Virus record (IMG/VR): IMGVR_UViG_3300028388_002747
Location: 5,515-69,514 of that record
DNA length: 64,000 bases
Reading direction: 5' to 3' (one strand)
DNA from: a virus
The notes beneath the pieces were generated by a model. That model searched no databases. It saw only the letters and a program-made list of their open reading frames with translations, and was not told the origin of the DNA. A program made the position numbers and the translations under genes. Within the stretch, counting starts at the first letter, position 1; each line of letters opens with the position of its first letter. Of this stretch, positions 29,101 through 63,777 are shown piece after piece.

Positions 29101-32100
29101 TGTAAACCAAACTAATCATTCTTTAATGCAAAGATTTGTTTCTTATCTAAATACAGATAGGATTCTTGATGAAAGTATAATTTCTTCTGAAGACAGATAC
29201 TGGTTAAAAGTTAATGGTGGAGAAATTATGTTTAAAAACAAAAACACTGTTACAGTTGGTGGTAAACTTTACACTACATTTTCTGGTATTACAAATGCAG
29301 TAGGGGAAAACATTTCTGATATTGTAGGTATGTTTATTGATGGTTATGTTGATATATCAGCCGGCCCTTGGATTATGGAGATAGGTGCTACACCTACTAC
29401 AGCTTCAACATGGCTTACACTTATTAAAGCTGGGGTTCCTGTAGAAGAAGTTGCTTATTTTATGAATCAACCTATTATTAGAGAGTATCTACAAATGCTT
29501 GATAATGCTGGATATAGTTGGTTGTTTATAGATGATTATGTAGATTTATTTTTAGAAAAATATGAGCCTAGTAATCCTGTTGAAATTACAGAAATGCCTA
29601 GTCTCGCTACTATGAAAAAGACTATTAAAATGTCTATGGAAGACATGCAAAAAGATGATAGTACTCTAGCTCAGCAGCAGTTTATTCTTAAAGAATTTAT
29701 GAAGTACAGTATGATGGCTAGTCATATGTTTAGAGTTACACAAGGTACTAACTTTGATACAGCTAATTTTAATGATGGTTTCTTGATTTTTAAGAAAAGA
29801 TTACAATTAGAATATGCTAAGAATACAATTATATCTTCTGCTAAAGTAGAGAATGATAAAATAGTATATGACACTAATGCTGCTGATGCTATACTTAACA
29901 ACTCTTTCTTAGGTACATTAAAAGATATGTTGTATAATGTAAGAAATGCAATGTCTGAAGTTCTTATTTCAGATAGACCTAGTAAGACAAGAAATGGAAT
30001 AAGTACTAGATCTGTTTTAGAAAAAGTACTTTTACCATATGTACAATTACCAGATAGAGAATTTTTAAAAGTTTCAAAAAGAGCTGTAAATGATTTATTT
30101 GATTGGTTTGTGTTTAATAAAAGAGGATTAAATGGTGCTGGTGTTATTGCAGAGATTTTGTTAGGAACTGATACGGCTGCTAGTGCTGCTAGTCAAATTA
30201 TGGATTTTAAAAAGCAAGTTGAAAATACAGCTAATCATACATTACATGGAAATATAATTCTTGATTCTATACAATATGAAAGTGGTTCTAATAAAAACAA
30301 ACCAGATAACTTAATGATTGTTAGAAAGGAAAACAAAGTGTATGATCAAAACTTAGTGATTGCAGCTTTTAGAGAATTAAGAGATTATCTTGGCACAGAA
30401 AAAGGAGGGCTTTATGGTAAGTTGGTAAGATTAGCTTTGTTACAAAGTGGGTCTAATAATTCAAGAATTTCTTTTAGTAGTCTCCTACCTTTTGAAGATT
30501 TTATAGAAGTGTATAAAGTTCCATTGAGTGAGATTAATAAGTCTGAAGAAATTTCACACTTTGTTCAATTAGATGTGTTCCAAAGAAACAATTGGAATAA
30601 TGATACATTAGTTCCTTTTAAAAGAGAAACTATGATACCTTATGAAGATAGGTATGGAAGACAGAGAATGTTTAAACCTAATTCTGATAAAGTACATAAG
30701 AATTTTAAACTTGCTATGAATAAAAAAATAATCCCAAAAGTAATTAATATTAACATGTTTAGTAGAGAAGCTGCTAGTGATATTATTGTTTACAATTGGG
30801 AAGTTAAACCTACAATCACTGATGAAGATAGAGCTGCTGGTATAAAAACTATTAAGGCTAAAAAAGCTGCAATGAAAAAAGCAGGAGACCGTTCTTATAG
30901 TAAAAAAGCTCTAATGAAAAAAGTTTACATCAGAGATAAAAATAATCAAAGAGTACCATTAGAACACCAAACTAAAGGTAAAGGAGATAAAGTTTATTAC
31001 AATCATGTTTATAAAGCAATTAATGCTTGGGGAGATGGCACAAGAGCTGTAGAAATGTATGGTAAGTTACATCCAGATTCTTTAATGTCTACAGTAGGTA
31101 GATCAGGTGTTCTTGATAATGGCTTTGAAAAATATATAGAAGTTGAAGATGAAGTTATTGAAGATATATTTAATCAAGAGAATATGATTGATCTTCAACA
31201 AGAACCTATGGAAATGGCATTTTCTGAAGAAAACCAGAAGAAAATAATCAGTGGTGAAAAAACTATGACTACAAGAAATAATAGTGAACATAGTGGTATA
31301 TACAGTATTAGAGGTAGAAAGTTTTTAATTACACCTAGAGATGGAGTTAATGGATATATGGATGTACAAGATGCAGGTGGAGCTCTTGCTGTAGTAAAAG
31401 CAGAAGCCCTTCCAACAAAAGCTACTAAACGTAATAAATATCCAGTATCTGTTGATGGAACTACTTATTTTGCTATGTATCAAAGTACAGTGGATTTTAT
31501 AAATGGAGAAACTAGAAAGTATGTTTTTGATATAAAAGATGTTACAGATGAAGTAGCTCAAGATAAATTAGATACAGAGGAAAGAGTAGCTGCAAATGTG
31601 GCTGCTGCTACCTCTCCTTTAGCTATAAATATTTACTCCACAGATAAAAATGGATTTGAAGAACTAAGTAACTTTAGTAATAAACGTCCATACACTGATA
31701 GTAGTGGAAGAAAATTTGCTACTGTAGAGGCTGCCTATCAATTTTCTAAGTCTCATTTTGCTACAGGCAACAATGATACTGTAAAAAGACAAATTTTAAA
31801 ATCCACAACTGGAGCTCAGGCTAAAGCTCTTGGTAAAAAAATTCAAGGTCTTAATAAAGAATTATGGGATAAAAATGCTGGCACTATAATGTATAGAATT
31901 ATCAAAGATAGTTTCTTACAAAACCCAGATCAAATACCATTATTAATGTCTACTGGTGATGCTATATTAACACATATAAGTGGGCCTAAAACAGATAAAT
32001 GGACAACATTATTTCCTAGAATTTTGACACAAGTCAGAAGTGAACTATCTTTAGAGAATATTAATACTGATAAAAATAAACCAACAGGTTTACCTGAGAT

Positions 32101-32125
32101 AGACAGAACAAATGAAAATTGTTAA
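17198..32125 (+). CDS. Giant virion-packaged RNA polymerase polyprotein (crAss-type two-barrel RNAP) with zincin-like, ASCH-like and NADAR domains
   Basis: 4975 aa. Catalytic GSDFDIDKL (DFDID at 27992-28006) preceded by RIPTQKQNS; beta-like ETDGAG; zincin-like YHEVFE..EELAEEF (~23780); C-terminal ISGEKTMTTR and LSNF..TVEAAYQ..AKALGK..LLMSTG..LTH. Confidence 0.9.
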   Translation: MGKQQNKPGIPVVKPISDAAYQPTPDLAQPNFNVDGSPRSLDDLWNAGIARNRTDYIEQLPLKDMYIGGRYNNTIPGTDYESTHGAQQSGLEQAFNGVVKGVNLAGTTVLGGFGTLYGVGKAVLPGGKLSDIWDNEIMQSLDEWNKKVDEEWLPNYYSAKETNSKWYETDNWFTTNFLFDKLIKNSGFAVGAMISGNIANAGLMRTGTAIASQASKLEKLAKAKKGFESFTPLLRNTSRAFSQGKNIEAATILEKEITSMADLSLRAKSLSELATQTNKFVNLSNNFRRSAVALYSSAGEANFEALQSSNEYRESLIQAYIDANGVHPTGEELAEIDGKVNRLGATAFIGNMALLGVTEWFQLPYLMGSTYRTTKSAANRFVRETGEITFDEAGKAMAKPKNWAEKSFGRLYKGSRYIIDPKEAFQEMGQFALQVGSENYYDKAYETGEADWWVDGVLHGFFGRDNETGEGVGAFVSKEGIEGGIMGMLTGGFMQGRQKYVADRTKATNTQNFIEELNNSPTFKDAYKQKLRDANRGIALAELQEEAIKQGNELEAKDIRHDMMFNYMYNKIKYGRKDLIAADFDMMISKGSTTDGLNELKEEGFANIDDTITTFTERANRMKEFMNKIELMAGNINQVYAGQVVTDSEGNTKPAYSEAVIEKMTYAASKIADYDVRIPQLEANLGNKNIVNTQNILDNLDNAKALDEARIEEEIKIESALENRQVRKDEALKLAKELDDYVELQERKKYFYNEYNDMISNPAKYDVPEADIQVPTEQTPITVTTKNGDREVMLGKEYRLGTVVKYDKNNKQVFRAPTLTIIEQKEDGTLVVQDTKGKVSEVTPEQLEDYDLIDPEKTTKTENFFLAHWNDVFIHQGIKHTKGKRKGKPIEGRLQLTKDHKGLNFVFINDQGKKKVVPLENSHFIADKAKGFTMPRVRKVGEVTPAQQTATNELISESGFTEDVAPHIDKRNKILDELFDQLSDKQKKADKLIAAKKKQIEKNQKELNKLKGKIREAKADKRVKGTFRFKTEARKALQKAMQLSNMQRQLENEIEQLEDQISDIDVAQQTILNIVDNLEKYSEKPTEFLEELQFDLLNIEEAKEKTVKQIDAIKDLISSTKAAIKSAVKYLENLINKFEAKNPDIPLFIGKRFMDNADNLLQGEIQNLLDTIELTEEQVIVPDEARVEQLEEHYEMMMEDMVVLDRQHKAMQVVIEKFEEVAANWKLQKVEEAVFGDNEALAQELIDTQEDSGTPISSAEENQNYEPEDKKEQYNVVLSTKPFSGRINPLTEEWEEPREHHKRANRFGFRFESLDNKEDIQGVVLNQKTEAGIADGLMEHLAGDSGVDPSDTLAFLMVVNTREGLRPVDEFGNPIMDGKDVLNRAVYQVFPKEDKDGKLTAYYKGKKQSMFRNTADSVDALTEKYIAWREKEVNKEERSPAEAVKVSFGVPTYATYLDENGEEQRDYAVRTNVKDAGLADENRLGNEDVLLVGTTNDTITQGTTSFTNALGRVFLRSDNGLTRLDNRKHTPEEAEVIFDVLFRLAQIAQDKKSLKGEEVTRLTNWLKSVVYWGHVKDQDGKVKKKGYNSIWFDWVVNDATNKKEPRLFFSKSEQSVALTPTSLNGNKNSILHILEQMYLNVDAKRVNEASFNAAYIQITGIDSKGQPITKKWPNYQSYLLSDKSPDSKGQLTQNRTTPVPLATNLSPITPTSPVNRNGIYFTRVGGMEEMYVEPESKAAPPTATPEATETAEKEEKSVEEVLETTESEKQGYTLDGVENNLFTLKNKDTVFFKMDLAKAKEVFEELGVNLKDSISKIKFVQQLLARQILDVQLTTEIIKARAKEKNIPELQAAISIGVDIFNDLSINFSGITNTKPVEYVPKKPNMDGKESNVIDVDGLGKVVYTFDMAKAQKLLEADTLSDPDKRAEFILKLFQEGILNPTADTKVVTKVAENTGKTPLQVVLKAVKTIFKQVEPHFVLEERPTDETIEAPKKPETPKDDKTKKVKEFKVGDRVVDKNYNVWEIISLKEWEAETRIPEMKSGIKARFIENVHPNEKKREILQNPDSTQYIEPGSVNTLPVNMTATLSVTPEIVESDTTNEETETDNFADGLDYSQFEDEDEKGMRALLNNQETSTVTPENWKEVEAWLKNKFPNLPVFRVKKMIEGTDGSKNWGMFHKGALYIYENAETGTVYHEVFEAVWKMFTTPEERAQIMNEFRFQEGTFTDRFTGKEYEYATAPAERIKEELAEEFRDKVQFNINPRRKKGNLITRIFNDIINAIKNFVFGKKARTNIEQLFEKIEGGQYARYSPYAAKLSYAQVGIQDIATAKGDQTSAYRAAINEIPAQQQHDIMQEMTYQVLRKLITDNETLFSLNETTFNKQQLYKELKMKVIGKVGAMVNTLAKQINSGEKTAEENNPRIDTNKHLINLINREWPNIVSNHEELLRQYEITFDENDELEIRNYEKSKNDPYGSAIKRDQYRKASYAVKFLLGSLPRVDASNNILKSSINGAQLIPSDKVVIDLKNQLYDAVDVEEMFDRLGKIAIKNPNYANLYKRLTNNPPSEFADLSNVDERGWELIGGFWKLMKSQHPDVLAVFVMSDSVQIGDSALAGAARAAKRTMIMSMIEKIKKGSDFFDYNRQTGKYTSSDLIKKKQLNRSAPQSYTQFLEHFNIDIKATDITSKLTDNQKRTFFEAVDGILLSMKNIEDMVNISTTTLDIDGNLMKLGTIQAIIENPEFESTYFNINNEKAQTYIGTNALSNIYHVLSNSKIKKFEDLKGTAYNYLRTDSFAKGSLILDKIFNMSGNGAKRKNSDLVLKPVYIDGTVDQRKGKKKQSSKLTYRQRFLQELNLNLDGVYMNLVPGDASLEHATRLHNSRDPFVTLEEVQAKTYDQIFEDYFKAEVELVRDERIVDSRHNNKELRFFKEILMNGMDKKRYNALMTAINKKTKTKGYTVSIEEILKEYKKDIIDSVELFITQEAQDTEAMLNQFGAIVYTDEGIDVTELKAEPNSLLAENTELDADSLRSSMKAVAINYMIANIELHKVLYSDPYQYGDELKRIKNFNSPRQPLMTVSKNVGKVLHKLYNKNFAKDDIGYTDMHRNHFRTITFEDVVHQYGIPGYEGDTYDETDGAGIITLKSYRKYAILANQWSTDNERQYRYEIAWEKKHKKLKLTDNDKKVLAEGDPKIKSTFTPLKPIVSGNKANGRNYNDTVLDKYALMAFSYRTLYEINPEANALNLYDRMMDEDIDYVVFKSARKVGAEQVLPLYDKDGNVTTAEFTEITNPNVPHIITNIPFDIMSVQSEVPSKDTHKITRGSQITKLATLDYMQAGVPIDFMQEEDNFEKRWLAWAKLEDKTSYNNGDNLYNLIQRNQQLLEAKTKLGYRQLLKEFGIKETVSGYTLVDRKKLINTLKGEMLKREINHNISSAFDEFEKGEVVLEATPAYQQIRHILYSIADSRVVSPKITGGFKVQIPATLLESKKIKPEKINGKDAYVSDTLKFYEDEDGKRVCEIMVARWFKSDKTDEELLNEWYVLDKDGNRTSELTEKGKKILSGIGFRIPTQKQNSIDSFVIKKLLPETLGDSVVVPSQIVQKVGSDFDIDKLSIYLKNVLSNPDGTVSIIEYQDDSNSTIAERYNQYIRGEVKEYREIREEVERDSIEYSQLRETINNYYNEFLSKVNEAKEDFILPLSNELNNLQELIQNKKSASKEIYSMGYKIFKTLSPGLQDSFYNLDSVMNSEVVNGKMSRWEKTLRFKSHAEDWIADITENEIIYDWTTPKGVKMSDTIELSEINKLKALIANYDLFLAESGFTSETITQHKAKLDSLKQNKKEYHKVKDAERSGLSAVKSKLYQAFNEEFNKTLAEEFDLMSMEEFGQQNMDLQNSKQALENEYIQSLQDLVSHPLNFNNLVKPNSADPMKKIAKAINRDLGRTEIDYSSPGNMMRRRFMSGLRQAFVSGKYAIGIAAVNQTNHSLMQRFVSYLNTDRILDESIISSEDRYWLKVNGGEIMFKNKNTVTVGGKLYTTFSGITNAVGENISDIVGMFIDGYVDISAGPWIMEIGATPTTASTWLTLIKAGVPVEEVAYFMNQPIIREYLQMLDNAGYSWLFIDDYVDLFLEKYEPSNPVEITEMPSLATMKKTIKMSMEDMQKDDSTLAQQQFILKEFMKYSMMASHMFRVTQGTNFDTANFNDGFLIFKKRLQLEYAKNTIISSAKVENDKIVYDTNAADAILNNSFLGTLKDMLYNVRNAMSEVLISDRPSKTRNGISTRSVLEKVLLPYVQLPDREFLKVSKRAVNDLFDWFVFNKRGLNGAGVIAEILLGTDTAASAASQIMDFKKQVENTANHTLHGNIILDSIQYESGSNKNKPDNLMIVRKENKVYDQNLVIAAFRELRDYLGTEKGGLYGKLVRLALLQSGSNNSRISFSSLLPFEDFIEVYKVPLSEINKSEEISHFVQLDVFQRNNWNNDTLVPFKRETMIPYEDRYGRQRMFKPNSDKVHKNFKLAMNKKIIPKVININMFSREAASDIIVYNWEVKPTITDEDRAAGIKTIKAKKAAMKKAGDRSYSKKALMKKVYIRDKNNQRVPLEHQTKGKGDKVYYNHVYKAINAWGDGTRAVEMYGKLHPDSLMSTVGRSGVLDNGFEKYIEVEDEVIEDIFNQENMIDLQQEPMEMAFSEENQKKIISGEKTMTTRNNSEHSGIYSIRGRKFLITPRDGVNGYMDVQDAGGALAVVKAEALPTKATKRNKYPVSVDGTTYFAMYQSTVDFINGETRKYVFDIKDVTDEVAQDKLDTEERVAANVAAATSPLAINIYSTDKNGFEELSNFSNKRPYTDSSGRKFATVEAAYQFSKSHFATGNNDTVKRQILKSTTGAQAKALGKKIQGLNKELWDKNAGTIMYRIIKDSFLQNPDQIPLLMSTGDAILTHISGPKTDKWTTLFPRILTQVRSELSLENINTDKNKPTGLPEIDRTNENC

Positions 32126-32127
32126 TT

Positions 32128-35100
32128 ATGCCTTGTAAAATTCAAATAAAACAAAATTTACAAACTACTGTGGAACAAAAATCTCAAGGATGGGATAAAG
32201 TTTCTTTTGAGCAGGTTCAACTACTTGCAAATAAAATTAATGCAGAGTTTAGATCTGCAGTAGTATCTTTTCCTAAAGAAGGTGTTAGAAAGATAAACAT
32301 ACCTAATGAGTTAGTAGATACATACTATAATTTTGAAAACAAATTAGAAGCTATGGAAGTAATTGATGCATCTAAAAATGTACAATTACAAACAGATAAT
32401 ATGAGAATGACTCCTGCAAATGAAGGCACTATTGCAAGAGTAAAGATGGTAGCAGAAAAAATGGGTATAAGTTTTATGGACTTACAAGATTACTTAAAAG
32501 GTAATCCTAATATTTCTGACATTGGTATTAATGCTTTAGCTGATCAGTTCCAGGGAATAGTAGCTATTGCACAAGGCATGGAAGCACAAGCTATTACAGA
32601 AGAAACTGTACATATTGCAACATCTATTTTAGAACAAACTAACCCACAACTTATCACTGGATTAATTAAAGACATTGGAAAATTTAAAATTTATCGTGAA
32701 ACTTTAAAAGCATATAGAGGTAAAAAAGCGTATCAACTTGCTAATGGCAAACCTAATATTCGTAAGATAAAAAAAGAAGCTGTAGATAAACTCATAGCTG
32801 AAGTTATTGTAAATGAAGATAGAAACTTTGGTGACTCATTTCCTGAATTAATGCAGCCTAAAATATTTGAAAGAATAAAAAATTGGTGGAAAGGGATTTT
32901 AAATAGTTTAGGTGCTTCTTACAGAGAAACAAATTTAGATATGTTTCAAACTGCTGCTTCTTTAGTTATGGAAGGAGTACCAGGAGGTAACATAAAAGAT
33001 ATTGAAAATAAAGATATTTATTATCAAGCAGGCAACAACACTGCTGTAGATAATATGTATAACACTATACTAGAAAAAGCTAAACGTATTAAAGGCCCTA
33101 TTCCTGAAACAGCAGAAAAGAAAAGGCATTATTTGTTTGAAATAGGAGGTAAGTTTAAAGAAGTAGCTAAAACTGTTACAGAAAAAATCAAAGAAGGAAA
33201 GCAATTCCCCGATCGTAGTCCTAAACAAAAAATTGTAGATGATATTAAAAAAGAGTGGGGTACAGAAGGACATAATTTTATTGAAAAATATATTGCTAAA
33301 AATTTAATTGATGCTGATGGGTATGCTAGACCAACTGCTTTAAATAATAAAATTGAATCTAATCTTCCAGATAAAATGCAAGCAGCTCTGATAGAATTTT
33401 CTAAAGAGCTAATAGGATCTTACCCAGAAGGAACAAGATTTATGGTAGAAGTAAAGGCTGTTAATGAGGCTATCCCTGGTATGTTAGCTTCTACTATTGA
33501 CTTTGTAGCTTTGGAACCTACTACAAAAAAAGATGGTAGTCCAGATGTTAAGGTAGATATCCTTGACTGGAAGTTTTCATCTTTTGATGAAAATTTAAGT
33601 GGAGATGATATTCCATTTTATAAGCAAAAAGATTGGAAAGCTCAAATGAGTGAGTATGTACGTATGTTTAAAAATTATGGTGCTACTAATACTACTATTA
33701 GAAAAGCAAGAATGATTCCATTTAAGATGAACTATAAATACTTTAAGGATAAAAATCCTGAAATCCAAAGTATGGAAATAGGAAGTCTTAATAATCTTAA
33801 AGAAACTAAAACATATTTATTACCTGTAGCAATTGATTCAGAATCTACAGGGTTTGCTCAAATAGACACTTTACTTAGTGGTTTAAGACAACAATATTCT
33901 AAACTTTATGAAAAAGTTGTTTCAGAAGATGAACAACAAGAAAAAAATATTGAATTAAATCAAATTTCTAAAGCTATTCGTTTGCTTCAAATGAAGCATG
34001 ATTTTGAGCCTTTGTTAGCAGTAACTAATTCTTTTTTAGAAAGAGCAGCAAAACTTGTAAAAACTTTTGATAAGATTGATTATACTCAATTAAGTGAAGA
34101 AGAGATCAGAACAAAATTGAAAGATTTAAAAGAAGCTAAAAACAGTGCTGAAAAATATATAGAAATGGCTGCTGCTTTTAAGCTAGTGATGGATAAAACA
34201 AATAAAAAAGATCGTCAAATACTAGCTGAATTAGCAAAACTTGATAATAAAGTTGATGGTATGCTCAAAATGTCTACAGAGATACAAAGTGAATATGCTG
34301 TACAGCTTTCTATTATTAAAGGATTAACAACTTCTGAAACTGCAGAAGAAGTATTACGCCCAGAGAAAAAAATAGATAAGCTATCACGTTCTTTTTTAGA
34401 AGCATCTAAACTTCCTTCTTATTTAATTAAACTAGGAGTTGATATGATTCAAAGAGTTAAGAATTATGCAGACTTACAATATAATGAAAAGATGCAAGAA
34501 TTTAAAGAAGTTCTTATTCCTTTAGAAAAATTAGCTCAATCTCAAAATAAAAAAGCCTTTGATCTAATAGCAAAGAAAACATCAAACTCATTACAACTTA
34601 TAAGAAAACTTGATGATAAATTTATTAGCCAAGTTAAAGATGCAAAAGCATCTAAAGATACAGAGTTCTTTAAAAAGAACATGAATATGGAAAAGTATCA
34701 AGAGTTACTTAAAAAGACTCTTGAAGAAAATGAAGCAAAAATAAATGCTAGAACATGGTATCCTTTAGATGAGCAGGCTAATCAAGCTAAAAAAGAATAT
34801 GAAATAAAAAGACTTAGAAACAGAGTTGATATTAGTAGAAAAGGATTTAATGGACATGATACTAGTCATTTCTCTTATTTATTTTATAATTCTATTAATG
34901 AAGAGCAACATTATTCTCCTGAATTTAAACAGCTTAAAAGTCAGCCTGCAGCATACAAAGCATGGCAATTTTTTACAGAGCTTAATGATACAGCAAAAGA
35001 ATTGGGTTATTTAGGTAAAAAACAACTTTCTTTTTTCCCTTTGATTGAGGCTACTACTGTTGAAAAAATGATACAAGCAGATAGTAAATTAGGACAAGTT

Positions 35101-37011
35101 AAAGATTCTGCTATGGATCTTTATAGTATAAGAACTAATGAGATGTATGATTTTGCTAAAATAGATCCTGAAACAGGGCAGATTCAAAAGAATATTCCTA
35201 AGTATTATACATCTACAGATAAACAAATTAACCAGCTTTCTACTAACCTTGATATGGTTGGTAGTATGTGGATTAAAGCTATACTAGATTATAAGTCTTC
35301 TAAAAACTTAGAATATGAGCTTCTTACATTGTTAGACGTAGAAAAAGCTAAAAATAATTTAGCTGTAGCTAATGGAGGTATTGTTTTTCAAGGAGGAACT
35401 CCATTAACAGAAGATGGCTCTAATGCTAATGCAGACGTATTTGAAACCATTATAGATGATTCTGTCTATGGAATTAAAGAAGACCTAGATAGTTGGGGAG
35501 CCAGATCTATTTCTGCTGTAAGTGGATTAAAATCAAAAAGTAGTGAACAAACAGCTAATAGAAGCTTTAAAGTTAAAAAAGGTATTAGAAGTGCAGACAC
35601 ATTGTTTCGTAGTTTAGCTATTGGTTTAAAACCTTTAATAGGATTAGCTAACTATTTTGGTTTACAATTTCAAGCATTTATTAATGCAGGAGAATTTTAC
35701 AAGTTTAGAGAATTTATGGGTAACAATGCTAGAGTTACCGGTAATATGCTTTCCAAAGAACAAAAAGCTTTGTTACATTATATTATGCCACTTAATGAAG
35801 ATATTGTAGCTGAAAAAAGAAGACAAATAGCTAAAGAACAAGGATCTGTAATGAAATGGTTAAGCACATGGACTTTTACAGATGTTATGATGTCAACAAA
35901 TGCTTTTCCTGAGAGACTATTACAATATGCTAATGCTGTTTCTATGAACCAAAACTCTATGGTAGTAGATGGAAAGATTGTTAACATTAGGCAATATTTA
36001 AAAGCTCAGGATAGAAAATCTAAATATAACATGAGTGCTTCTGATCGTAAAAAATTAGAAAAGACATTTGAAGACAGAGTTAAAAAACTAAAAGAAACAA
36101 AAGCTTTAGATAAGATTGTAAAAATAGAAGGAGATAAGATTACTATCCCTGGTGCGGATTTAAAAGCTGTAGCAGATTATAGATTACAAATCACGGAATA
36201 TGGTAGAAAGCTTAGTGGTCTTATGAGTGAAAACAATAAAATGGGTTATAGAAGAGACACTATAATAAGTTCTTTTATGATGTTTAGGAGTTGGATGCCT
36301 AAGCATGTTGGTACTCGTATCTTAGATATTAATAAAAATCTTGAATTAAATCAGTGGGAGTATGGTAAGACAAGATTATTTGTAAAAACTGTTGCTATGT
36401 TAGGCTTTAGGAATATTACAAAGATAAAAGATATTTTAGCTGGAAATGAAGAAGGTGTAAAATTTATGAGAGAAATGTTAGAAGAGAAAAAAATGTCGTA
36501 TTTTAATGCAACAGGTAAACAGCTAACAATCTCTGAAGAAGAATTTTTTGATTTAGTTAGAACAGAATTAAACAATCAAATGAAAGAATTACTAACTCTA
36601 ACTACTATTGTAGCTACAGTTATGAAAGTTAGTGCTATGGAACCACCTGAAGATGCTACCCCAGAAGAGATAAATAGATATAAATGGTGGGCTAAGTTGT
36701 TTAATAAAACATCAGATGAAATTAGTTTTTACTATAATCCTTTGTCTTTCGATGCATTTACTCAAGGTTCTATAATGCCTTCTTTAAGATTACTAACTAA
36801 AGTTTGGAGAGCATTTAATCAACTTTATAAAGAGACCAAAGGAGTTTATTTAGATGATGAAGACATTATGGATGGTGCTCATCCTACAAAATATTTCTTA
36901 AATCTTGTTCCTGGAGCTTCACAGTTTCAAAATGAGTTACTTCCATATTTATACCCAGAAGTAGCTAAAGAATTAGGTATAAGAGTTAGTGCTCATCCTT
37001 TCCATAGATAA
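32128..37011 (+). CDS. Large cargo/RNAP-associated protein with degenerate zincin-like and PD-(D/E)xK nuclease domains
   Basis: ATG at 32128 preferred over TTG at 32119. EETVH motif; GTEGH..STIDF..ILDWKF..QMSEY nuclease motifs; long helical C-terminal region. Confidence 0.7.
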   Translation: MPCKIQIKQNLQTTVEQKSQGWDKVSFEQVQLLANKINAEFRSAVVSFPKEGVRKINIPNELVDTYYNFENKLEAMEVIDASKNVQLQTDNMRMTPANEGTIARVKMVAEKMGISFMDLQDYLKGNPNISDIGINALADQFQGIVAIAQGMEAQAITEETVHIATSILEQTNPQLITGLIKDIGKFKIYRETLKAYRGKKAYQLANGKPNIRKIKKEAVDKLIAEVIVNEDRNFGDSFPELMQPKIFERIKNWWKGILNSLGASYRETNLDMFQTAASLVMEGVPGGNIKDIENKDIYYQAGNNTAVDNMYNTILEKAKRIKGPIPETAEKKRHYLFEIGGKFKEVAKTVTEKIKEGKQFPDRSPKQKIVDDIKKEWGTEGHNFIEKYIAKNLIDADGYARPTALNNKIESNLPDKMQAALIEFSKELIGSYPEGTRFMVEVKAVNEAIPGMLASTIDFVALEPTTKKDGSPDVKVDILDWKFSSFDENLSGDDIPFYKQKDWKAQMSEYVRMFKNYGATNTTIRKARMIPFKMNYKYFKDKNPEIQSMEIGSLNNLKETKTYLLPVAIDSESTGFAQIDTLLSGLRQQYSKLYEKVVSEDEQQEKNIELNQISKAIRLLQMKHDFEPLLAVTNSFLERAAKLVKTFDKIDYTQLSEEEIRTKLKDLKEAKNSAEKYIEMAAAFKLVMDKTNKKDRQILAELAKLDNKVDGMLKMSTEIQSEYAVQLSIIKGLTTSETAEEVLRPEKKIDKLSRSFLEASKLPSYLIKLGVDMIQRVKNYADLQYNEKMQEFKEVLIPLEKLAQSQNKKAFDLIAKKTSNSLQLIRKLDDKFISQVKDAKASKDTEFFKKNMNMEKYQELLKKTLEENEAKINARTWYPLDEQANQAKKEYEIKRLRNRVDISRKGFNGHDTSHFSYLFYNSINEEQHYSPEFKQLKSQPAAYKAWQFFTELNDTAKELGYLGKKQLSFFPLIEATTVEKMIQADSKLGQVKDSAMDLYSIRTNEMYDFAKIDPETGQIQKNIPKYYTSTDKQINQLSTNLDMVGSMWIKAILDYKSSKNLEYELLTLLDVEKAKNNLAVANGGIVFQGGTPLTEDGSNANADVFETIIDDSVYGIKEDLDSWGARSISAVSGLKSKSSEQTANRSFKVKKGIRSADTLFRSLAIGLKPLIGLANYFGLQFQAFINAGEFYKFREFMGNNARVTGNMLSKEQKALLHYIMPLNEDIVAEKRRQIAKEQGSVMKWLSTWTFTDVMMSTNAFPERLLQYANAVSMNQNSMVVDGKIVNIRQYLKAQDRKSKYNMSASDRKKLEKTFEDRVKKLKETKALDKIVKIEGDKITIPGADLKAVADYRLQITEYGRKLSGLMSENNKMGYRRDTIISSFMMFRSWMPKHVGTRILDINKNLELNQWEYGKTRLFVKTVAMLGFRNITKIKDILAGNEEGVKFMREMLEEKKMSYFNATGKQLTISEEEFFDLVRTELNNQMKELLTLTTIVATVMKVSAMEPPEDATPEEINRYKWWAKLFNKTSDEISFYYNPLSFDAFTQGSIMPSLRLLTKVWRAFNQLYKETKGVYLDDEDIMDGAHPTKYFLNLVPGASQFQNELLPYLYPEVAKELGIRVSAHPFHR

Positions 37012-57252: not shown

Positions 57253-57867
57253 TTATTTTAGATAGATAAATAATGCTTCTTCTGTTACAGCTCCTGGTAT
57301 TATTTGCCATTCAAATATATCTACATCTTCATGTTCTGTTAAGAATTCTTCTATATCTCTCTTTGAATAAGTGTTGTGATAAAGATTATTATCAGGGTTA
57401 TAGTTGATAATTTCTTGTTTTGCAGGTCTAATAAAGAATATGTGTACAACTAATTTACTAGCAACTCTAATCATTTCTTCTAGCATAGGCTGGAAATGTT
57501 TCTGATGTTCTAATACATGTCTTGAATAAGACACTTCTGTAGAGCCCGTAGCTAAACCAGTTTTATGGCCTTCTTTATTAATTACAGGTATTTCTTTTTG
57601 TGCTGCATCATTCCAGAGATAAACACTAGATTCAATCCCCTGCCACATAATATCTGGATGATCATTTGTGTAAATAAAGTAATCATCACACACACCACAA
57701 CCAAAATCTGTTATACTTCTATACTTTTGTCCGGTTATATAATCTCTTACATACACTTTAGAAAGTGCTGCAGGACTACCTACCCAAGATTTAAAGTTTT
57801 GGTATTGAGATTTAATATCTTTATCCCACCAAGTCTGTTTGTGTATATTATTTTCCATGATTATCAA
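57253..57867 (-). CDS. Class I SAM-dependent methyltransferase
   Basis: ITDFGCGV (motif I) and SYSRHVLEH..MLEEMIRVA. Resembles small-molecule/sugar methyltransferases; no DPPY/PC DNA-MTase motif. Confidence 0.85.
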   Translation of the reverse strand: MIIMENNIHKQTWWDKDIKSQYQNFKSWVGSPAALSKVYVRDYITGQKYRSITDFGCGVCDDYFIYTNDHPDIMWQGIESSVYLWNDAAQKEIPVINKEGHKTGLATGSTEVSYSRHVLEHQKHFQPMLEEMIRVASKLVVHIFFIRPAKQEIINYNPDNNLYHNTYSKRDIEEFLTEHEDVDIFEWQIIPGAVTEEALFIYLK

Positions 57868-58633
57868 ATTTTAATTCTCCATGTTGAATATCCCAAAGTT
57901 CATCTCTATTCAATGCTATTACATCAATTAAAGGTTGAATATTTAAATTCATAATTCTAGTATTACCAAGTCCACCTTTATCACTTACTACAAATTCAAA
58001 CTTTTCGATAGGTACTACATAATGATCTTCGTAATGAAAGAATTTATTAATATAACTTTCATCATTCACTGGAGGCTCATAGTTTATTCTTTGATCTTTT
58101 TCTTGCCATATTTTAAGAGTTTTACACATACCTATCATGTTTTCTTTAGTTCCTCCAAAGAAAGCACCATAATGATATATATAAGGTAAGTTACTGTTAT
58201 GAGGTACATATGCATTACCTCTAGGATTACGATCGAACCCTTTACCATTAGATAATGTAGTACGAGCAGCATAATGTTCACCACCTACTAATGAACCAAT
58301 AAACCAATCTTCTGTAAAAGGCTTTTGGATATTAGTGTCTGCATCAAAATAGTATAAGAAATCAGATGAACAATTGGCAAGTTTAATAATGTTCAAGAAT
58401 TTAGAGTTGGTTCCATCCCTCCAGTTATTATGACTAGTGGGATGGTACTCAACATTTACACCGTTTAAAGGTAGCAATTTGCACGGGTCTTTATCTGAAA
58501 AGAAATAGAATTTTATGTCAGCTTCTCCTTTATAAAAATAAATAAACCTTCTTATAAATCTAAGTCCTAATACAAAGTATGCATTAGTAGCTAAAAGTAT
58601 AATTCCTATTTCTTTCTTTTCTTTCATGGCCAA
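57848..58633 (-). CDS. Glycosyltransferase family 6 (ABO / alpha-1,3-Gal(NAc) transferase-like)
   Basis: IGIILLATNAY, YFFSD, DFLYYFDAD, YHYGAFFGG and NDESYINK are GT6 signature motifs. Confidence 0.85.
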   Translation of the reverse strand: MAMKEKKEIGIILLATNAYFVLGLRFIRRFIYFYKGEADIKFYFFSDKDPCKLLPLNGVNVEYHPTSHNNWRDGTNSKFLNIIKLANCSSDFLYYFDADTNIQKPFTEDWFIGSLVGGEHYAARTTLSNGKGFDRNPRGNAYVPHNSNLPYIYHYGAFFGGTKENMIGMCKTLKIWQEKDQRINYEPPVNDESYINKFFHYEDHYVVPIEKFEFVVSDKGGLGNTRIMNLNIQPLIDVIALNRDELWDIQHGELKFDNHGK

Positions 58634-58938
58634 ATATGAATTACATGATAATCCATTATTAAAGCTCTAATAATAGGTTCTTCTCCTCCTTCATCAAAAG
58701 GAACCATTTTAGCTTGAGATAAACCTTCCGGATTGATCAATACTTCTCTGCCATTTTCATATGCATTCTTTAGTTTATCACTACATGCATCTCCAATAGC
58801 CCATATCTTGACTCTTTGTAGATGTTTTAATAATTGCTTTTGCAATTCCTCTTTTGTGTTTTCATCTACAATGATTTTACTGTTTCTCTGGGGAATCTCA
58901 ACATATAAATACTTCCCAAGTACTTCTGGCTTATTCAT
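58624..58938 (-). CDS. GroES-like co-chaperonin (divergent)
   Basis: 104 aa. 'VLGKYLYVEIP..KIIVDE..IWAIGD..G.EVLI..LIMDYHVI' follows the GroES layout. Confidence 0.45.
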   Translation of the reverse strand: MNKPEVLGKYLYVEIPQRNSKIIVDENTKEELQKQLLKHLQRVKIWAIGDACSDKLKNAYENGREVLINPEGLSQAKMVPFDEGGEEPIIRALIMDYHVIHIWP

Positions 58939-59290
58939 AATTAATAGAAATTATTTTTAATAGTTCTAAACCTTGTTCTTTAGTAAGTTTAATCTCTGAC
59001 TGAAATGTATCTTTAACACGCTCGGTCATAAGATTTCCTTTCTTATCAAATCTAGGTTTTTGAGTTTTAGGATGTATTTGAGGACGAGTTTCCCATCTTT
59101 CATGTAAATCATCTAGTAAAACTAACACTTCATCATTCTGTAATGTTAGTACACGAATCACCCTATTTACATCAAACGAATGATATTCAGTGACAGTGTA
59201 ACCATCAATTCCTATAATTCCTTTTTCTGTATCTTCTTGTACAGGAGGAACCTCCCTTGTTGTTTTATAAAAAAAATGTGTTTTTTCCAT
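58931..59290 (-). CDS. Hypothetical protein
   Basis: 119 aa, coupled to its neighbours. Confidence 0.7.
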   Translation of the reverse strand: MEKTHFFYKTTREVPPVQEDTEKGIIGIDGYTVTEYHSFDVNRVIRVLTLQNDEVLVLLDDLHERWETRPQIHPKTQKPRFDKKGNLMTERVKDTFQSEIKLTKEQGLELLKIISINYE

Positions 59291-59458
59291 ATTATTGGTT
59301 TAAATTATTTGCTGCAGTTAATGAATATGAATTACTTATTCCAGAAGTATCACTGTAAGTAATATTTGTAGCTAAAGGATTATAATCATGTGTAGGGTGT
59401 TTTAACAACATAGAATCATCATTAAACATTATGCTACGTGCTTGAAGTGCTTTTTTTT

Positions 59459-59507
59459 GTCTAGTAGGCTTTGCAGCTATGTCTCCTACTAGACCTTTTA
59501 AAAAGGG
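59459..59507 (-). other. Programmed -1 ribosomal frameshift signal (slippery heptamer, 6-nt spacer, 10-bp hairpin)
   Basis: Minus strand reads CCCTTTT-TAAAAG-GTCTAGTAGG-N16-CCTACTAGAC. The -1 frame is open for 69 codons to TAA at 59294-59292. Confidence 0.7.
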
Positions 59508-59701
59508 CGAATAATAATTTCTACGTTGTCAGGATCTTCAGCGTATATTTCTGGAATTTCTCTTGTAACTTTAAAAGCTACAGCCTGCTCATCTTTGGCT
59601 AGACAAGTTTGTTTGTCTATAATAATAGAAGTTTCTTCTACTTTTCCCTTGTCATTTTTTTTGTGATGCAATACTGCATACTCGAATAATGATTTCCTCA
59701 T
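59498..59701 (-). CDS. Small hypothetical protein ending IIIRPF; probable -1 frameshift extension to 59292
   Basis: 67 aa. Last codons CGC CCT TTT TAA contain the heptamer C CCT TTT. Confidence 0.75.
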   Translation of the reverse strand: MRKSLFEYAVLHHKKNDKGKVEETSIIIDKQTCLAKDEQAVAFKVTREIPEIYAEDPDNVEIIIRPF

Positions 59702-59735
59702 CGTATTTAGTTTTAAAAATTAATAATCAAATATA

Positions 59736-60170
59736 TTAAATTAAATTGTATTTTTTTAATAATTGCTTTCTTCTTTTATTCACTTCTTCAAATCTAAACA
59801 TATCAGATTCAACATCTGCATGTTCATCAGGAGTTAAAAGAATTATATTTTCTGGATCATACTCTGCAATAGGGAATTTGATCCTAGGTAATATATGATG
59901 AAAGAATGTACTTAATGCTTCACTACCTAAATAAGTTCCAGAGACTTCAGATTTATGAGGTCGCTTTCTCCAAATTTTCATAAAAAAATGAACTCTTTTT
60001 TGATGTTCTGATTTTTTATTTGATTGTGGTTTATTTTTTGTTAATCCTGATTTAAAAGTGGAAATATTACTTTTTTTCTTGAGTGGTTTACGGCCTATAT
60101 GATTTTGACATAGCCCTCCACTCCATACAGGATTTGTACATCCTTCTCTTTTACATTTCTTACGCTTCAT
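59736..60170 (-). CDS. HNH/NinG-like endonuclease
   Basis: N-terminal C..C....C..H Zn motif; SEVSG..FHHILP..ENIILLT..EH. Confidence 0.65.
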   Translation of the reverse strand: MKRKKCKREGCTNPVWSGGLCQNHIGRKPLKKKSNISTFKSGLTKNKPQSNKKSEHQKRVHFFMKIWRKRPHKSEVSGTYLGSEALSTFFHHILPRIKFPIAEYDPENIILLTPDEHADVESDMFRFEEVNKRRKQLLKKYNLI

Positions 60171-60483
60171 TATCTAACTCTTCTAAAATTTGATATGGCA
60201 TTGATACATAATAATGTTGTATGTATTCCTCAATATATTCTCCTTTTTTACAAATTATTTCATTGTTTTCATCTTTCCAAACAAAAGTAGTAAAGCCTCT
60301 AAAGTGATCAGGTATTTTTACTCCTTCTTCTATATCATGATGTGTAATCCAAGAAGGTTTACCATACTTGTCATGGTCTTTATAAACTTCTAATTGTATT
60401 AATTTTTTGTCAATAAAATTTGAAGAATTTTTAGTAGCATAAATTAAATCATGAATTGTTCTCTTTACCTCCATTATCGTCAT
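60160..60483 (-). CDS. Hypothetical protein
   Basis: 107 aa, overlapping the end of recA. Confidence 0.55.
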   Translation of the reverse strand: MTIMEVKRTIHDLIYATKNSSNFIDKKLIQLEVYKDHDKYGKPSWITHHDIEEGVKIPDHFRGFTTFVWKDENNEIICKKGEYIEEYIQHYYVSMPYQILEELDNEA

Positions 60484-61483
60484 CTTGTTCTACAGGTATT
60501 CCGTTTAATAATCTATCTATTACTTTATTTCTAAGTTCTTGAAAAAATAAATCATCATCAAGCATTACTAAGAAATCTTCTAATTGATGTTTTACTCCAT
60601 CAAATGTATATGTTTTACCATATTTACGCCCTAGTTCAACTTCATCAGCTAATTGCATTAGCTCTTTCTTTCTATCTATACCAATACCAAAAGCAATATC
60701 AAATTTACAATCATGATATGGTGGCCAAGTTTTATTTTTGATAGTTCTGATTTTAGTTTCATTACCTATCACTTCTTTCCCATCTTTGGAGAGACTCTTA
60801 CTGATTTCTATTCTACAATCAGAATAAAATTTAAGAGCATGTCCTCCTTGAGTTGTGCGAGGATCTCCAAACATTACACCTATTTTTTCACGATATTGTG
60901 AGATAACCACAACAGCAGTTTTATTACTGGCAAGTAATGGTTTTAATTTTGGATAAGCAGAACTATTAAGCCTGGCTTTTAAACCAATAGCACTAGCTCC
61001 CACTTCACCATCTACAACTTTCTTAGGAATTAAAGAAGAGTCACTGTCAATAATAAGCAAATCAACTTCTCCAGTTTTAATCATTTCATTAGCAATATTA
61101 AAACCTTCTTCTCCATTAGCTGGTTGTGATAACAACATATTATCTATGTCAACACCTAATGCTTGGAAATAATTTTTATCAACAGCATGTTCACCATCAA
61201 TATATACTACTTTTCCTCCTTGTTTTTGACATTCTGCAGCTAAGTGACCACACACAGTAGATTTACCTGTGCCTTCCCATCCTATTAGTTCATAAAGTTT
61301 CCCTTTAACAATACCTCCTACTCCTAATACACCGTAATCAAATCCTATTGAACCGGTAGAAATAATCTCATGATCTCCAATACATTTATCATTTAATCCT
61401 AGTATAGCACCTTGGCCATACACTTTGTTTAATCTTTTAAGAGTGTCCTCAAAAGACTCTCTTTCTTCTTTCTTTTTTGCCAT
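60449..61483 (-). CDS. recA: RecA recombinase
   Basis: ISTGS, Walker A GWEGTGKS, YIDGEHA, IIDS, SQYREKIGVMFGDPRTTQGGHALKFY and KNK motifs. Confidence 0.95.
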   Translation of the reverse strand: MAKKKEERESFEDTLKRLNKVYGQGAILGLNDKCIGDHEIISTGSIGFDYGVLGVGGIVKGKLYELIGWEGTGKSTVCGHLAAECQKQGGKVVYIDGEHAVDKNYFQALGVDIDNMLLSQPANGEEGFNIANEMIKTGEVDLLIIDSDSSLIPKKVVDGEVGASAIGLKARLNSSAYPKLKPLLASNKTAVVVISQYREKIGVMFGDPRTTQGGHALKFYSDCRIEISKSLSKDGKEVIGNETKIRTIKNKTWPPYHDCKFDIAFGIGIDRKKELMQLADEVELGRKYGKTYTFDGVKHQLEDFLVMLDDDLFFQELRNKVIDRLLNGIPVEQDDDNGGKENNS

Positions 61484-61507
61484 ATGTAGTTATAATTTTT
61501 GTGTCTA

Positions 61508-61538
61508 TAAAGATAAATAAATTTTGATTTATAACAAA
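61508..61538 (-). promoter_or_regulatory. Bacteroidota-type promoter for recA
   Basis: Minus strand TTTG, N19, TATCTTTA, 24 nt upstream of the recA ATG. Confidence 0.6.
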
Positions 61539-61544
61539 ATAAAT

Positions 61545-61572
61545 TAGAAACCAAAGCCCTCCTAAGAGGGCT
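61545..61572 (-). terminator. Terminator-like hairpin after the MazG-like gene
   Basis: Minus strand AGCCCTC-TTAG-GAGGGCT followed by TTGGTTTCT. Confidence 0.6.
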
Positions 61573-61606
61573 AAGATTTCAATCTAAAAAACAGAAAAAA
61601 TGATTC

Positions 61607-61969
61607 TTAAATTTCTTCTCGATTATCACCACTACCATGTAAGGTGTTAGTTTTTCTACGTTTTATTAATTTGTCATAATTCATTTGTGCAATCTCTTCC
61701 AGAGATAAACCAAACTCATTAGCTAAAGCTGTAATATACCAAAGTACATCTCCTAGTTCTTTAGCTATTGCATGTCTTTCTTCATCAATAACAATCATTC
61801 TACCCACTTTATCAAGTGTATTGAATTCTTTATCACGATAAAGTTTTTTAATTTTGTCTGCTACTTCTCCAGCTTCCCCTGTAAGACCCATAGCACAATA
61901 AGCTATTCCTATTTCTTTAGGAAATATTGCTGTTTCTTCAATAATTTTTTGATAATCTTTAAAATTCAT
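61607..61969 (-). CDS. MazG-like nucleotide pyrophosphohydrolase
   Basis: GLTGEAGEVADKIKK..KELGDVLWY..N.DKL..R..GSGDNR. Confidence 0.9.
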   Translation of the reverse strand: MNFKDYQKIIEETAIFPKEIGIAYCAMGLTGEAGEVADKIKKLYRDKEFNTLDKVGRMIVIDEERHAIAKELGDVLWYITALANEFGLSLEEIAQMNYDKLIKRRKTNTLHGSGDNREEI

Positions 61970-62078
61970 AAGTTATTAAATATAAAAGGGTTGATACAAA
62001 AGCTAGTACTCCTATTATAAGAATACAAAATCCTATAAAAGCAGCTACTCCTTGCCAAGGTGAAGATTTATTATTCAT
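61959..62078 (-). CDS. 39-aa membrane peptide
   Basis: MNNKSSPWQGVAAFIGFCILIIEVLAFVSTLLYLITYEF; its stop overlaps the MazG-like start. Confidence 0.55.
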   Translation of the reverse strand: MNNKSSPWQGVAAFIGFCILIIGVLAFVSTLLYLITYEF

Positions 62079-62155
62079 AATTAATTTTGATTTTTTAATT
62101 GTTGATTATTTTCAACAAAAAGAATAGTATTGAAGATAATACACAACATTTTGTT

Positions 62156-62859
62156 TTAAAATATATATCTAATTGTGTTCCATGGAACTATTTCTTGATG
62201 TAATTCTTTAAATTGTTTTATATACTCTCTCTTTAGTGGTGCAAGATAACGAATATTTTCACCTCCATACTGAGAAATTTTAGTTTCTTGTATATCTGGT
62301 GTCCATAATAAATATTCTCCAGGCAAATCTTTTCCTAAATTATATTGATGTTTACCAGCATTATGTGTTAGAAATATTACTTCAGATTTTACATAAGGTT
62401 TATTTCTATCATGGGCATTAGACTAAATCTTATTCTTACTTTTCTTTCCGGGTTATAATCTAAAAATTCATAAGGTATAATCTTAGTAGCTAATGTAGCT
62501 TTAGCAATAGGATGAGTTCTAAAAAATTCAAATATTTCTCTCCAGTTATGTTGTTTTCTGTGTAATGCAAAATCTTCATTACATGCAATATCATATGTTA
62601 CATATTGTTCATCTGTTTGATTAGGTTTTTCTACTTGAGATTCAAACATAGCATGACTATTGATTTCAGTAAGTATTTCATTATAATTCTGTGCAATAGT
62701 CACTCCTTCTGCAAGATGTCTTTTCATGTAGCAATATGTACAATTTAACAGACATCCATAACCAAAAGAAGGAGTAATGTAATCACTACTCCTTCCTGAT
62801 GGTCTAATTTTAAATGTTTTTCTAGTTACTGTTTCTATTTTATTCATTTTTTTGTTCAT
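62156..62859 (-). pseudogene. Spore photoproduct lyase-like radical SAM gene, disrupted by an apparent internal deletion and frameshift near 62413
   Basis: The 5' part has GCLLNCTYCY (CxxxCxxC), YDIACNED, ATK and RIRFSLMP. The 3' part, in the -1 frame, reads KSEVIFLTHN..LLWTP..QETKISQYGGENIRY..IRYIF to TAA at 62156. Confidence 0.75.
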
Positions 62860-63261: not shown

Positions 63262-63485
63262 TTAATTACAATCTTTTCTACGTTCATACCATCACTACTT
63301 TCATGAACCTCAATCTCTTTAGCAAATCCTTGCATTACTCTGTAAGGTTGTCTAGTATTTATTTTAGACTCACAAGGTACATTACATTCGATGTGATCTG
63401 TATGAATACAATTAGTTCTAAAGTGAACTGACCATTTGTTTGTTGCTCTTACCCAATGGTAAAAGAATCTCCATTTATCCCTCAT
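63258..63485 (-). CDS. Hypothetical protein
   Basis: 75 aa; 'WSVHF...C.....I.C.VP..SK....QP..VM.G' pattern. Confidence 0.65.
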   Translation of the reverse strand: MRDKWRFFYHWVRATNKWSVHFRTNCIHTDHIECNVPCESKINTRQPYRVMQGFAKEIEVHESSDGMNVEKIVIK

Positions 63486-63735
63486 TGTTTTTAATTTTTA
63501 AACCATTACTACATCCACAAGATGCCACAGTACCATCAACAAGGTACTTTGAAAGTGTGTGCTTGATGTTTCCACATTCACACTCACACTTCCAAACAAT
63601 ACCTCTGTTGCTGGTAAAAGGCCACTCATACTCAAAATCTGGTTGTAAAACTTTGAGTTTGCCATACTTTTTTCCAGTATGGTTTTTACACATACGTCCT
63701 GTATGTGGATTAATTAGCTGTTCGCACACACACAA
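63475..63735 (-). CDS. Cys-rich DNA-binding module of the type found N-terminal to HNH/AP2 homing endonucleases
   Basis: GKKYGKL.V..WKCECECGN...L..G...SCGC; no nuclease domain follows. Confidence 0.6.
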   Translation of the reverse strand: MCVCEQLINPHTGRMCKNHTGKKYGKLKVLQPDFEYEWPFTSNRGIVWKCECECGNIKHTLSKYLVDGTVASCGCSNGLKIKNNEG

Positions 63736-63777
63736 AAATTTTTGAGTTGAAAATCATGCTGTGTAAGGTACAACAAA

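Follow-up and report, generated by a model that had tools for sequence, protein, structure and literature searches.

A probable programmed -1 ribosomal frameshift at the end of a small gene conserved among divergent phages

The putative frameshift signal in the window

A stretch of viral DNA of 64,000 nucleotides (nt), corresponding to positions 5,515 to 69,514 of the IMG/VR record IMGVR_UViG_3300028388_002747 and hereafter called the window, carries on its minus strand a gene for a protein of 67 amino acids (aa) whose 3' end is analysed here. It is highly probable (about 0.88), on the basis of comparative sequence analysis, that this small phage gene ends in a genuine programmed -1 ribosomal frameshift. 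Comparison of related loci showed selection, throughout a large family of phages, on the slippery heptamer, the stop codon adjacent to it, a downstream stem and the -1 coding frame. An initial annotation of this DNA had described the heptamer, the stem with its spacer, the run of eight A residues behind it, the -1 frame and the gene coordinates, and all of them were recovered when the minus strand was read again, including the -1 frame of 69 codons that stops 1 nt from the next ATG. The elements of the site are the following:

59498..59701, minus strand: zero-frame gene from the open reading frame (ORF) list, 67 aa plus stop; the short product, a compact beta-hairpin / helix / strand domain
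59501..59507, minus strand: slippery heptamer C CCU UUU, in phase X XXY YYZ, with CCU in the P site and UUU in the A site
59498..59500, minus strand: zero-frame stop TAA, abutting the 3' side of the heptamer ('shifty stop' arrangement)
59459..59494, minus strand: putative stimulatory hairpin, a perfect stem of 10 base pairs (bp) with a 16-nt loop, after a 6-nt spacer (59500-59495)
59295..59501, minus strand: -1 frame extension, 69 codons after F (LKGLVGD...NNLNQ); with the 67-aa domain, a predicted trans-frame product of 136 aa
59295..59336, minus strand: conserved C-terminal motif of the extension (SNSYSLTAANNLNQ), from the alignment of 100 extension C-termini
59292..59294, minus strand: -1 frame stop TAA, 1 base from the ATG of the next gene (59290)

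The 67-aa gene (59701..59498, minus strand) ends ATT CGC CCT TTT TAA, its protein finishing in ...IIIRPF, and translation in the -1 frame gives PF-LKGLVGDIAAKPTRQKK...SYSLTAANNLNQ. The arms of the hairpin, GTCTAGTAGG (59494-59485) and CCTACTAGAC (59468-59459), pair on the minus strand, are followed by A8 and form the core of the minimum free energy fold; when 434 control positions in this locus were examined, only 2.3% had a stem of at least 10 bp starting 4-9 nt downstream. In addition, an in-phase XXXYYYN directly before the stop was present in 5 of the 178 stop-to-stop frames of at least 60 codons in the window, and among these five candidates this gene alone is followed by a long -1 frame, with 69 codons versus 2-6. 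One of the other four, an ORF at 63440-63745 on the plus strand, ends in an in-phase AAATTTT and its -1 frame shuts after 2 codons; its AAATTTT end is a chance occurrence and a handy internal negative control.

Conservation of the slip site

The initial annotation had also proposed to test homologues for the slippery terminus, a covarying stem and an open -1 frame, and each of these three comparisons turned out favourable. For this purpose 120 related loci were fetched which, together with the window and after removal of duplicates, gave 106 non-redundant loci. The tally comprises 103 of them, with GC contents of 29-67%; kept apart were L044, which is cut by a contig end, L093, an in-frame fusion, and L049, in which the heptamer is T TTT TTA and the stop lies one codon (GAG) further on. 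A perfect in-phase heptamer was verified in 93 of the 103 loci, and the stop codon abuts the heptamer in all 103. The heptamers were distributed as follows:

Perfect heptamers (103 loci): AAATTTT 45, CCCTTTT 27, CCCTTTC 18, AAATTTC 1, CCCTTTA 1, CCCTTTG 1
Imperfect heptamers (103 loci): TCCTTTT 5, ACCTTTT 2, GCCTTTT 2, CTCTTTT 1

Codon choice at the site is fixed beyond what the amino acids require. When expected counts were taken from the codon usage of each locus in its own long ORFs, the Pro codon was found to be CCT in 56/56 cases versus 15.8 expected, the preceding Arg codon CGC in 46/54 versus 9.1 expected, and the Asn codon AAT in 46/46 versus 31.4 expected; even among loci with a GC content of at least 0.5, CGC CCT TTY was present in 21 of 24. 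The stop codon itself is biased: TAG occurs at 60 sites, TAA at 34 and TGA at 9, versus 266 TAA, 207 TGA and 94 TAG (16.6%) as the stops of 567 background ORFs with 100 aa or more from these loci. This TAG bias could result from release-factor specificity or from a preference at the next position, for a G-initial codon or for V or A. UAG is decoded by release factor 1 alone. On the upstream side, a Shine-Dalgarno-like stimulator was considered and dropped, given that a 4-mer of this kind precedes the site in only 25 of the 103 loci.

A T run at the slip site could also be a substrate for RNA polymerase, whose transcriptional slippage would yield a subpopulation of -1 mRNAs encoding the fusion, and a run of five T residues is indeed present in 82/103 sites. 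However, five bases are shorter than the runs usually tied to productive transcriptional slippage, and this explanation is very unlikely because 21/103 sites, those reading CCC TTT C plus stop, have no homopolymer longer than 3 nt while their architecture is unchanged. Additionally, a heptamer that must be in phase and whose first base is fixed, together with a stem at +4..+7, is characteristic of slipping ribosomes and not of a slipping polymerase.

The -1 frame and its translation

The -1 frame is complete in 99 loci, where it adds between 45 and 154 codons (median 64), and it is open in all of them. In comparison, the median length of the +1 frame is 9 codons, with 47 reached in 2/99 loci, and that of readthrough in the zero frame is 11 codons; stop-codon readthrough was accordingly dropped as a candidate, since the zero frame shuts so early. 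Among the relatives, the stop of the -1 frame either touches the start of the next gene or overlaps with it, as in the ATGA of L003 and L032. At its N-terminus the extension follows the pattern x-F-L-x-x-P, with F in 99, L in 97 and P in 56 of 100 sequences across the whole GC range, and the residues S, T, N, A and G are abundant in it.

The initial annotation had named translation of the downstream frame solely from its internal ATG at 59429 as one of the outcomes that would speak against frameshifting. Under such an explanation the frame would be a separate small gene with its own start and a 45-aa product, and the heptamer a by-product of the R-P-F C-terminus; the ATG does exist in the -1 frame of the window, and the R-[PN]-F terminus is conserved in the protein. 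However, 49 of the 99 -1 frames contain no ATG and 13 contain no ATG, GTG or TTG, and in the 50 frames with an ATG it falls in the first quarter in only 10. Independent initiation is ruled out as a general mechanism because so many -1 frames are devoid of any start codon. Additionally, the -1 frame opens exactly at the heptamer every time and begins with the conserved xFLxxP, the synonymous R and P codons are fixed, and in-frame fusions are known. A gene with its own start has, therefore, a slim chance of being the correct account, slightly below that of transcriptional slippage.

With respect to these fusions, L093 has no stop at the site and reads CGT CCT TTC TTG GAG, that is, RPFLEQ..., a natural in-frame fusion collinear with the predicted trans-frame junction. 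Moreover, 8 of 12 fetched database proteins have the extension in frame, and a YTLT/YTIT-type motif stands at the end of the fused proteins P0035, P0038, P0046 and P0062.

RNA structure downstream of the site

The stem typically begins 4-7 nt past the heptamer. In 102 loci, the folding of the 70 nt from position +4 was compared with that of native windows of the same locus and was found to be more stable, with a mean z of -1.43 and 87% of the values below zero (Wilcoxon p = 4e-14). A 5' arm was opened within +4..+12 in 73/102 loci, with 6.0 of 9 bases opening pairs versus 3.6 in controls. The sequences of the arms vary by locus, as illustrated by ACUCCAUC/GGUGGAGU, GCUCCAGCA/UGCUGGAGC and GUUCCUGACU/GGUCAGGAAC, the window having GUCUAGUAGG/CCUACUAGAC. 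Covariation was evaluated for an 8-bp stem in 26 aligned A_AAU_UUU loci, in which 89.4% of the cells are paired versus 71.3% after shuffling, a level that none of 500 shufflings reached; compensatory changes on both sides were found in 7 of the 8 stem pairs, and slid controls were paired in 33-51%. An Rfam scan at the window hairpin returned no family.

It was also considered that the hairpin might be solely a plus-strand terminator, or another element with no role in decoding, as T8 precedes the stem on the plus strand and CTTTT comes after it. However, no terminator-like site was called on either strand between 58900 and 60200, the ORFs of at least 90 aa in 57253-62859 lie on the minus strand with a single exception (57565..57954, plus strand, nested in a minus-strand gene), and in most relatives covarying stems of unrelated sequence stand at the same distance from the heptamer. 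A hairpin without decoding role is thus about as improbable as an independent start.

The tail encoded by the extension

A few residues before its end, the extension carries a conserved motif, [S/A/T]-[N/T]-[S/T/A]-Y-[S/T/N]-[L/A]-[T/S/A]-x-[A/I/L/V]. Among 100 C-termini the frequencies by position are S58/A22/T17, N47/T22, S42, Y77/F7, S38/T31/N16, L49/A47, T46/S25/A17, x, and A50/I18/L14/V12. The motif was compared with an ssrA-like degron, a candidate that was dropped as the motif is not at the extreme C-terminus, and with clamp- or single-stranded DNA-binding protein (SSB)-type tips, dropped because the likeness ends at being short.

An AlphaFold2 (AF2) model of the natural fusion P0038 gave predicted local distance difference test (pLDDT) values of about 97 for the domain, 44-63 for the tail and 63-74 for its last residues. 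The low pLDDT of the tail indicates that it is disordered, and its last residues may form a short linear motif. When the complex of the domain with the last 36 residues of the extension was predicted, scores of 0.19 and 0.27 were obtained against a mark of 0.32.

A minority of the extensions have other characteristics. An NVGIGT-like motif was found in 9/100 of them, and the extension of L046 contains G-x-y repeats in six triplets. In LR756501 (L123; LR756501.1 259365-262571, site at locus positions 1701-2270), CGC CCT TTT TAA is followed by a -1 frame of 190 codons which matches the Pfam Collagen triple-helix repeat (E 8.5e-9) and also has a GLGTTNP motif. Judging by the sequences of L123 and L046, some extensions may be fibrous, beyond merely disordered.

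The protein family

A first homologue search retrieved 21 proteins, all ending in R-x-F, where x is P in 8, N in 9, S in 3 and G in 1. When 1.84 billion cluster representatives (clusters at 50% identity) were then searched with a profile, there were 480 matches at E<=1e-3 and 75 at E<=1e-10. An alignment of 122 proteins was built from 13 proteins of the first search and those among the best 150 profile matches that have about 62-75 aa and are matched to the end; proteins extended at the N- or C-terminus were excluded, as were a repeat protein of 3490 aa and a fragment of 32 aa. A C-terminal F is present in 117 of the 122, RPF being the end of 89, and 5 database proteins extend 1-3 residues beyond F. 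The residue before F is P in 95 of these 117 sequences, N in 11, S in 4, G in 3, A in 2 and D in 2; P, N and G, which account for 109/117, are encoded by CCU, AAU and GGU, which agrees with the initial proposal that the '..RPF*' ending reflects the slip site.

No known family was recognized in these proteins. None of the 122 matched a PHROG family at E<=1e-3, and Pfam gave three chance-level matches only; for the 67-aa protein of the window, zero Pfam and zero significant PHROG families were obtained, its extension being likewise without match. A single-protein scan of viral contigs returned no relatives of the 67-aa protein, a nucleotide search against phage records matched the RecA region only, and a PDB sequence search with the window protein matched no chain. 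When six family members were compared by tblastn with 50,697 phage records, LR756501 and LR756503 alone were found, two records of one uncultured phage of 735 kb. The sole match of a one-pattern scan over one genome per prokaryote species (L122) was inspected and is not a family member. A search of the ESM Atlas returned viral clusters only, without names.

The 67-aa domain was modelled by AF2 with a mean pLDDT of 95.1, with strands at residues 4-15, 21-35 and 60-66 and a helix at 38-48. The best Foldseek match in the PDB, 8pw2, is weak (E 0.16, prob 0.96, TMq 0.52), as is the VIA Z of 3.9 for 8pw4, both bearing on a comparison with phi29 p6. Other weak matches to common folds were PurS (best VIA Z 6.6), the eL20 N-domain (Z ~6) and RNA polymerase epsilon.

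Genomic context

The setting of the gene is a replication and nucleotide-metabolism neighbourhood rather than a tail module. Across the 106 loci, the recurrent neighbours are HNH (20), an 'FFY' protein (14), MazG-like (14) and RecA (12) proteins, followed by a GroES-sized small protein (8), thioredoxin-like (8), PhoH-like (6) and dUTPase-like (5) proteins; apart from RecA and HNH, these names were assigned by reading the sequences. The initial suggestion of a context other than that of tail assembly chaperones is upheld by the RecA, HNH, MazG-like, PhoH-like and dUTPase-like neighbours. Its description of a recA/GroES-like operon held in part: RecA is encoded upstream, two genes away from the 67-aa gene, a 107-aa ORF and the HNH ORF lying between them, and the 104-aa neighbour taken as GroES-like has no Pfam or PHROG match.

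The gene immediately downstream is the following:

58931..59290, minus strand: 119-aa gene (MEKTHFFYKTT...) from the ORF list, without Pfam or PHROG match

This gene is probably translationally coupled to the extension frame. In 14 loci, a protein of 104-119 aa of the 'FFY' type (N-terminus ..FFY.., motif LVLLDD.HER) always follows the extension frame directly, frequently overlapping it in an ATGA, and it may be functionally linked to the frameshift gene. On the other side, an HNH-like ORF (59736-60170, minus strand; phrog_144, E 1.5e-5) lies directly upstream, and homologous HNH ORFs flank the gene on one side or the other in 20/106 loci, which suggests a mobile endonuclease landing repeatedly next to the frameshift gene.

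As for the remainder of the window, its GC content is 32%, and no tRNA or tmRNA gene was found by ARAGORN over its 64 kb. A neighbouring 342-aa protein has its best cultured match in Chryseobacterium phage MA9V-3 (33% identity). At the C-terminus of a 4975-aa ORF (17198-32125, plus strand) there is a NADAR domain (Pfam PF08719, E 4e-12, residues 4817-4928), and the stop of this ORF overlaps the TTG start of the next one, a 1630-aa ORF (32119-37011) that lies in the -1 frame; Pfam gave no match for this ORF or for a 1738-aa ORF (5027-10243).

Proposed mechanism and points against it

The mechanism proposed for this site is the canonical one of -1 frameshifting, here with a stop codon next to the heptamer. 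The majority of ribosomes would terminate at the TAA (59500-59498), yielding the 67-aa globular protein, and a minority would slip back by one base on C CCU UUU, with tRNA-Pro moving from CCU to CCC and tRNA-Phe from UUU to UUU. The slipped ribosomes would read UUA (Leu) and continue for 69 codons in total to give the 136-aa protein, composed of the globular domain and a flexible S/T/N-rich tail ending in the motif SNSYSLTAANNLNQ. Two stimulators are likely to take part, namely the 10-bp hairpin 6 nt past the heptamer and the slowly decoded stop that would enter the A site after translocation of the tRNAs on the heptamer ('shifty stop'). The adjacent stop in all loci and the TAG bias are consistent with such a contribution of the stop to slippage. 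We infer from this comparison the slippage itself, its efficiency and its division between tandem slippage in the course of translocation and E/P-site slippage at the stop, two modes that look alike in these data.

The heptamers of the family belong to the H_HH.U_UU.Y class, which one study (PMC4066793) lists with the most efficient ones in E. coli; it ranks U_UUC and U_UUU as the best tetramers behind A_AAG. According to other sources, an imperfect X_XX is tolerated in known sites, including U_CC in flaviviruses (PMC5009743), and shifting is favoured where a slow stop in the A site meets a P-site tRNA able to re-pair (PMC3082878).

Several points weigh against this interpretation. Ten of the 103 heptamers are imperfect in the first position; all ten keep U UUU, as the use of the H_HH.U_UU.Y class by the family explains. 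The stem is weak or absent in 29/102 loci, where fewer than 6 of 9 bases open pairs (for example L004, L005, L026, L033, L098 and L102). As the -1 frame of the window has ATGs at codons 26 and 32 of the 71-codon frame counted from the heptamer, independent initiation may, on the window alone, operate in this single phage. Some of the 'fused' proteins, such as P0038 with its junction KKFL, possibly owe their single frame to homopolymer indel errors. The related loci share phylogeny, so that the p-values overstate their independence, and the fold matches are weak, the best having a Foldseek E of 0.16 and a VIA Z of 6.6. Finally, the trans-frame protein is a prediction, and its role as a ratio-setting adaptor with a docking motif is one that we infer.

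An artefact or decay, either a homopolymer sequencing indel or the pseudogenisation of a single ORF, is hardly credible: a few database proteins are single fused ORFs, but the same codon is interrupted and the stop abuts the heptamer in 103 non-redundant loci from many assemblies across GC 29-67%, and assembly error is excluded because the pattern recurs in independent assemblies.

Returning to programmed frameshifting, the role that fits best by analogy would be that of a two-isoform, ratio-setting system like lambda gpG/gpGT, in which a minority of the molecules would bear a flexible, sometimes collagen-like tail whose short C-terminal motif would dock to a partner. A further possibility, for which the odds are clearly low, is that the adjacent UAG-biased stop acts as a sensor beyond setting a ratio, so that the share of frameshifted product tracks the termination capacity or translational state of the host during infection and the tailed isoform recruits a partner through its motif. 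If true, this would represent a new and widespread phage regulatory recoding module in an uncharacterised family, found even in a 735-kb phage.

Significance

The gene family and its recoding appear to be undescribed, as the initial annotation had suggested for the recoding; no description of either was found in the literature searched, which included passages of the PRFect paper and of one Crassvirales preprint. Conserved phage frameshifts are textbook knowledge for tail chaperones and a few capsid or tail proteins, and a second large family would be new, in this case with 480 clusters at 50% identity on contigs of 29-67% GC and outside structural modules. In terms of annotation, gene callers return an orphan of 65-70 aa with either an 'unexplained gap' or a small spurious ORF behind it, and the joined product is due at each locus. 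For recoding research, the family supplies more than 100 natural variants of one signal, a mutagenesis series made by nature for bacterial -1 frameshifting in which the heptamer class, the identity of the adjacent stop and the position and sequence of the stem differ. For phage biology, the conserved sequences point to a widespread protein with two predicted isoforms that are evidently both needed.

Comparison with known recoding systems

The closest parallel is lambda gpG/gpGT and the tail-assembly-chaperone frameshift in general, in which, as proposed here, slipping by -1 close to the end of a small phage gene leaves a short product in the majority and yields, as the minority, one extended at its C-terminus. 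In both cases the arrangement is conserved across very divergent phages while the sequences are not, and it presumably sets a ratio. However, the tail chaperone genes lie between the major tail and tape measure genes, whereas the present gene is found among RecA, HNH, MazG-like, PhoH-like and dUTPase-like genes, matches none of the chaperone families in Pfam or PHROG, encodes a predicted disordered tail with a short C-terminal motif and has its stop abutting the heptamer.

Bacterial -1 frameshifting in E. coli dnaX and at IS3/IS911-type sites likewise combines a heptamer with a downstream stem-loop. Those sites use A AAA AAG together with an upstream Shine-Dalgarno-like stimulator, while the present ones have X XXU UUY with an adjacent zero-frame stop and, in only 25/103 loci, a Shine-Dalgarno-like 4-mer.

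The NS1' site of flaviviruses of the Japanese encephalitis serogroup is Y CCU UUU, including C CCU UUU, with a short spacer and an RNA structure. It operates on eukaryotic ribosomes with a pseudoknot as stimulator and no adjacent stop, and its proteins are unrelated to this family. The likeness extends to U CCU UUU, the U_CC being mentioned in PMC5009743.

The 'shifty stop' CCC_UGA sites of pheL, antizyme and Listeria phage tail genes resemble the present site in joining a slow A-site stop to a re-pairable P-site tRNA, according to PMC3082878; they differ in that the shift there is +1 on a single tRNA, whereas a shift of -1 on a tandem heptamer, with a stem behind it, is proposed here. On the other hand, the capsid 10A/10B pair of T7/T3 and the Ig-like extensions show (PMC5009743) how a frameshift supplies a C-terminal appendage to a fraction of the copies. 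In contrast to T7/T3 10A/10B, the present gene lies outside the structural module and its extension is predicted to have no folded domain. Some extensions in the family look fibre-like, as judged by the Collagen match in L123, the G-x-y repeats of L046 and the NVGIGT-like motifs.

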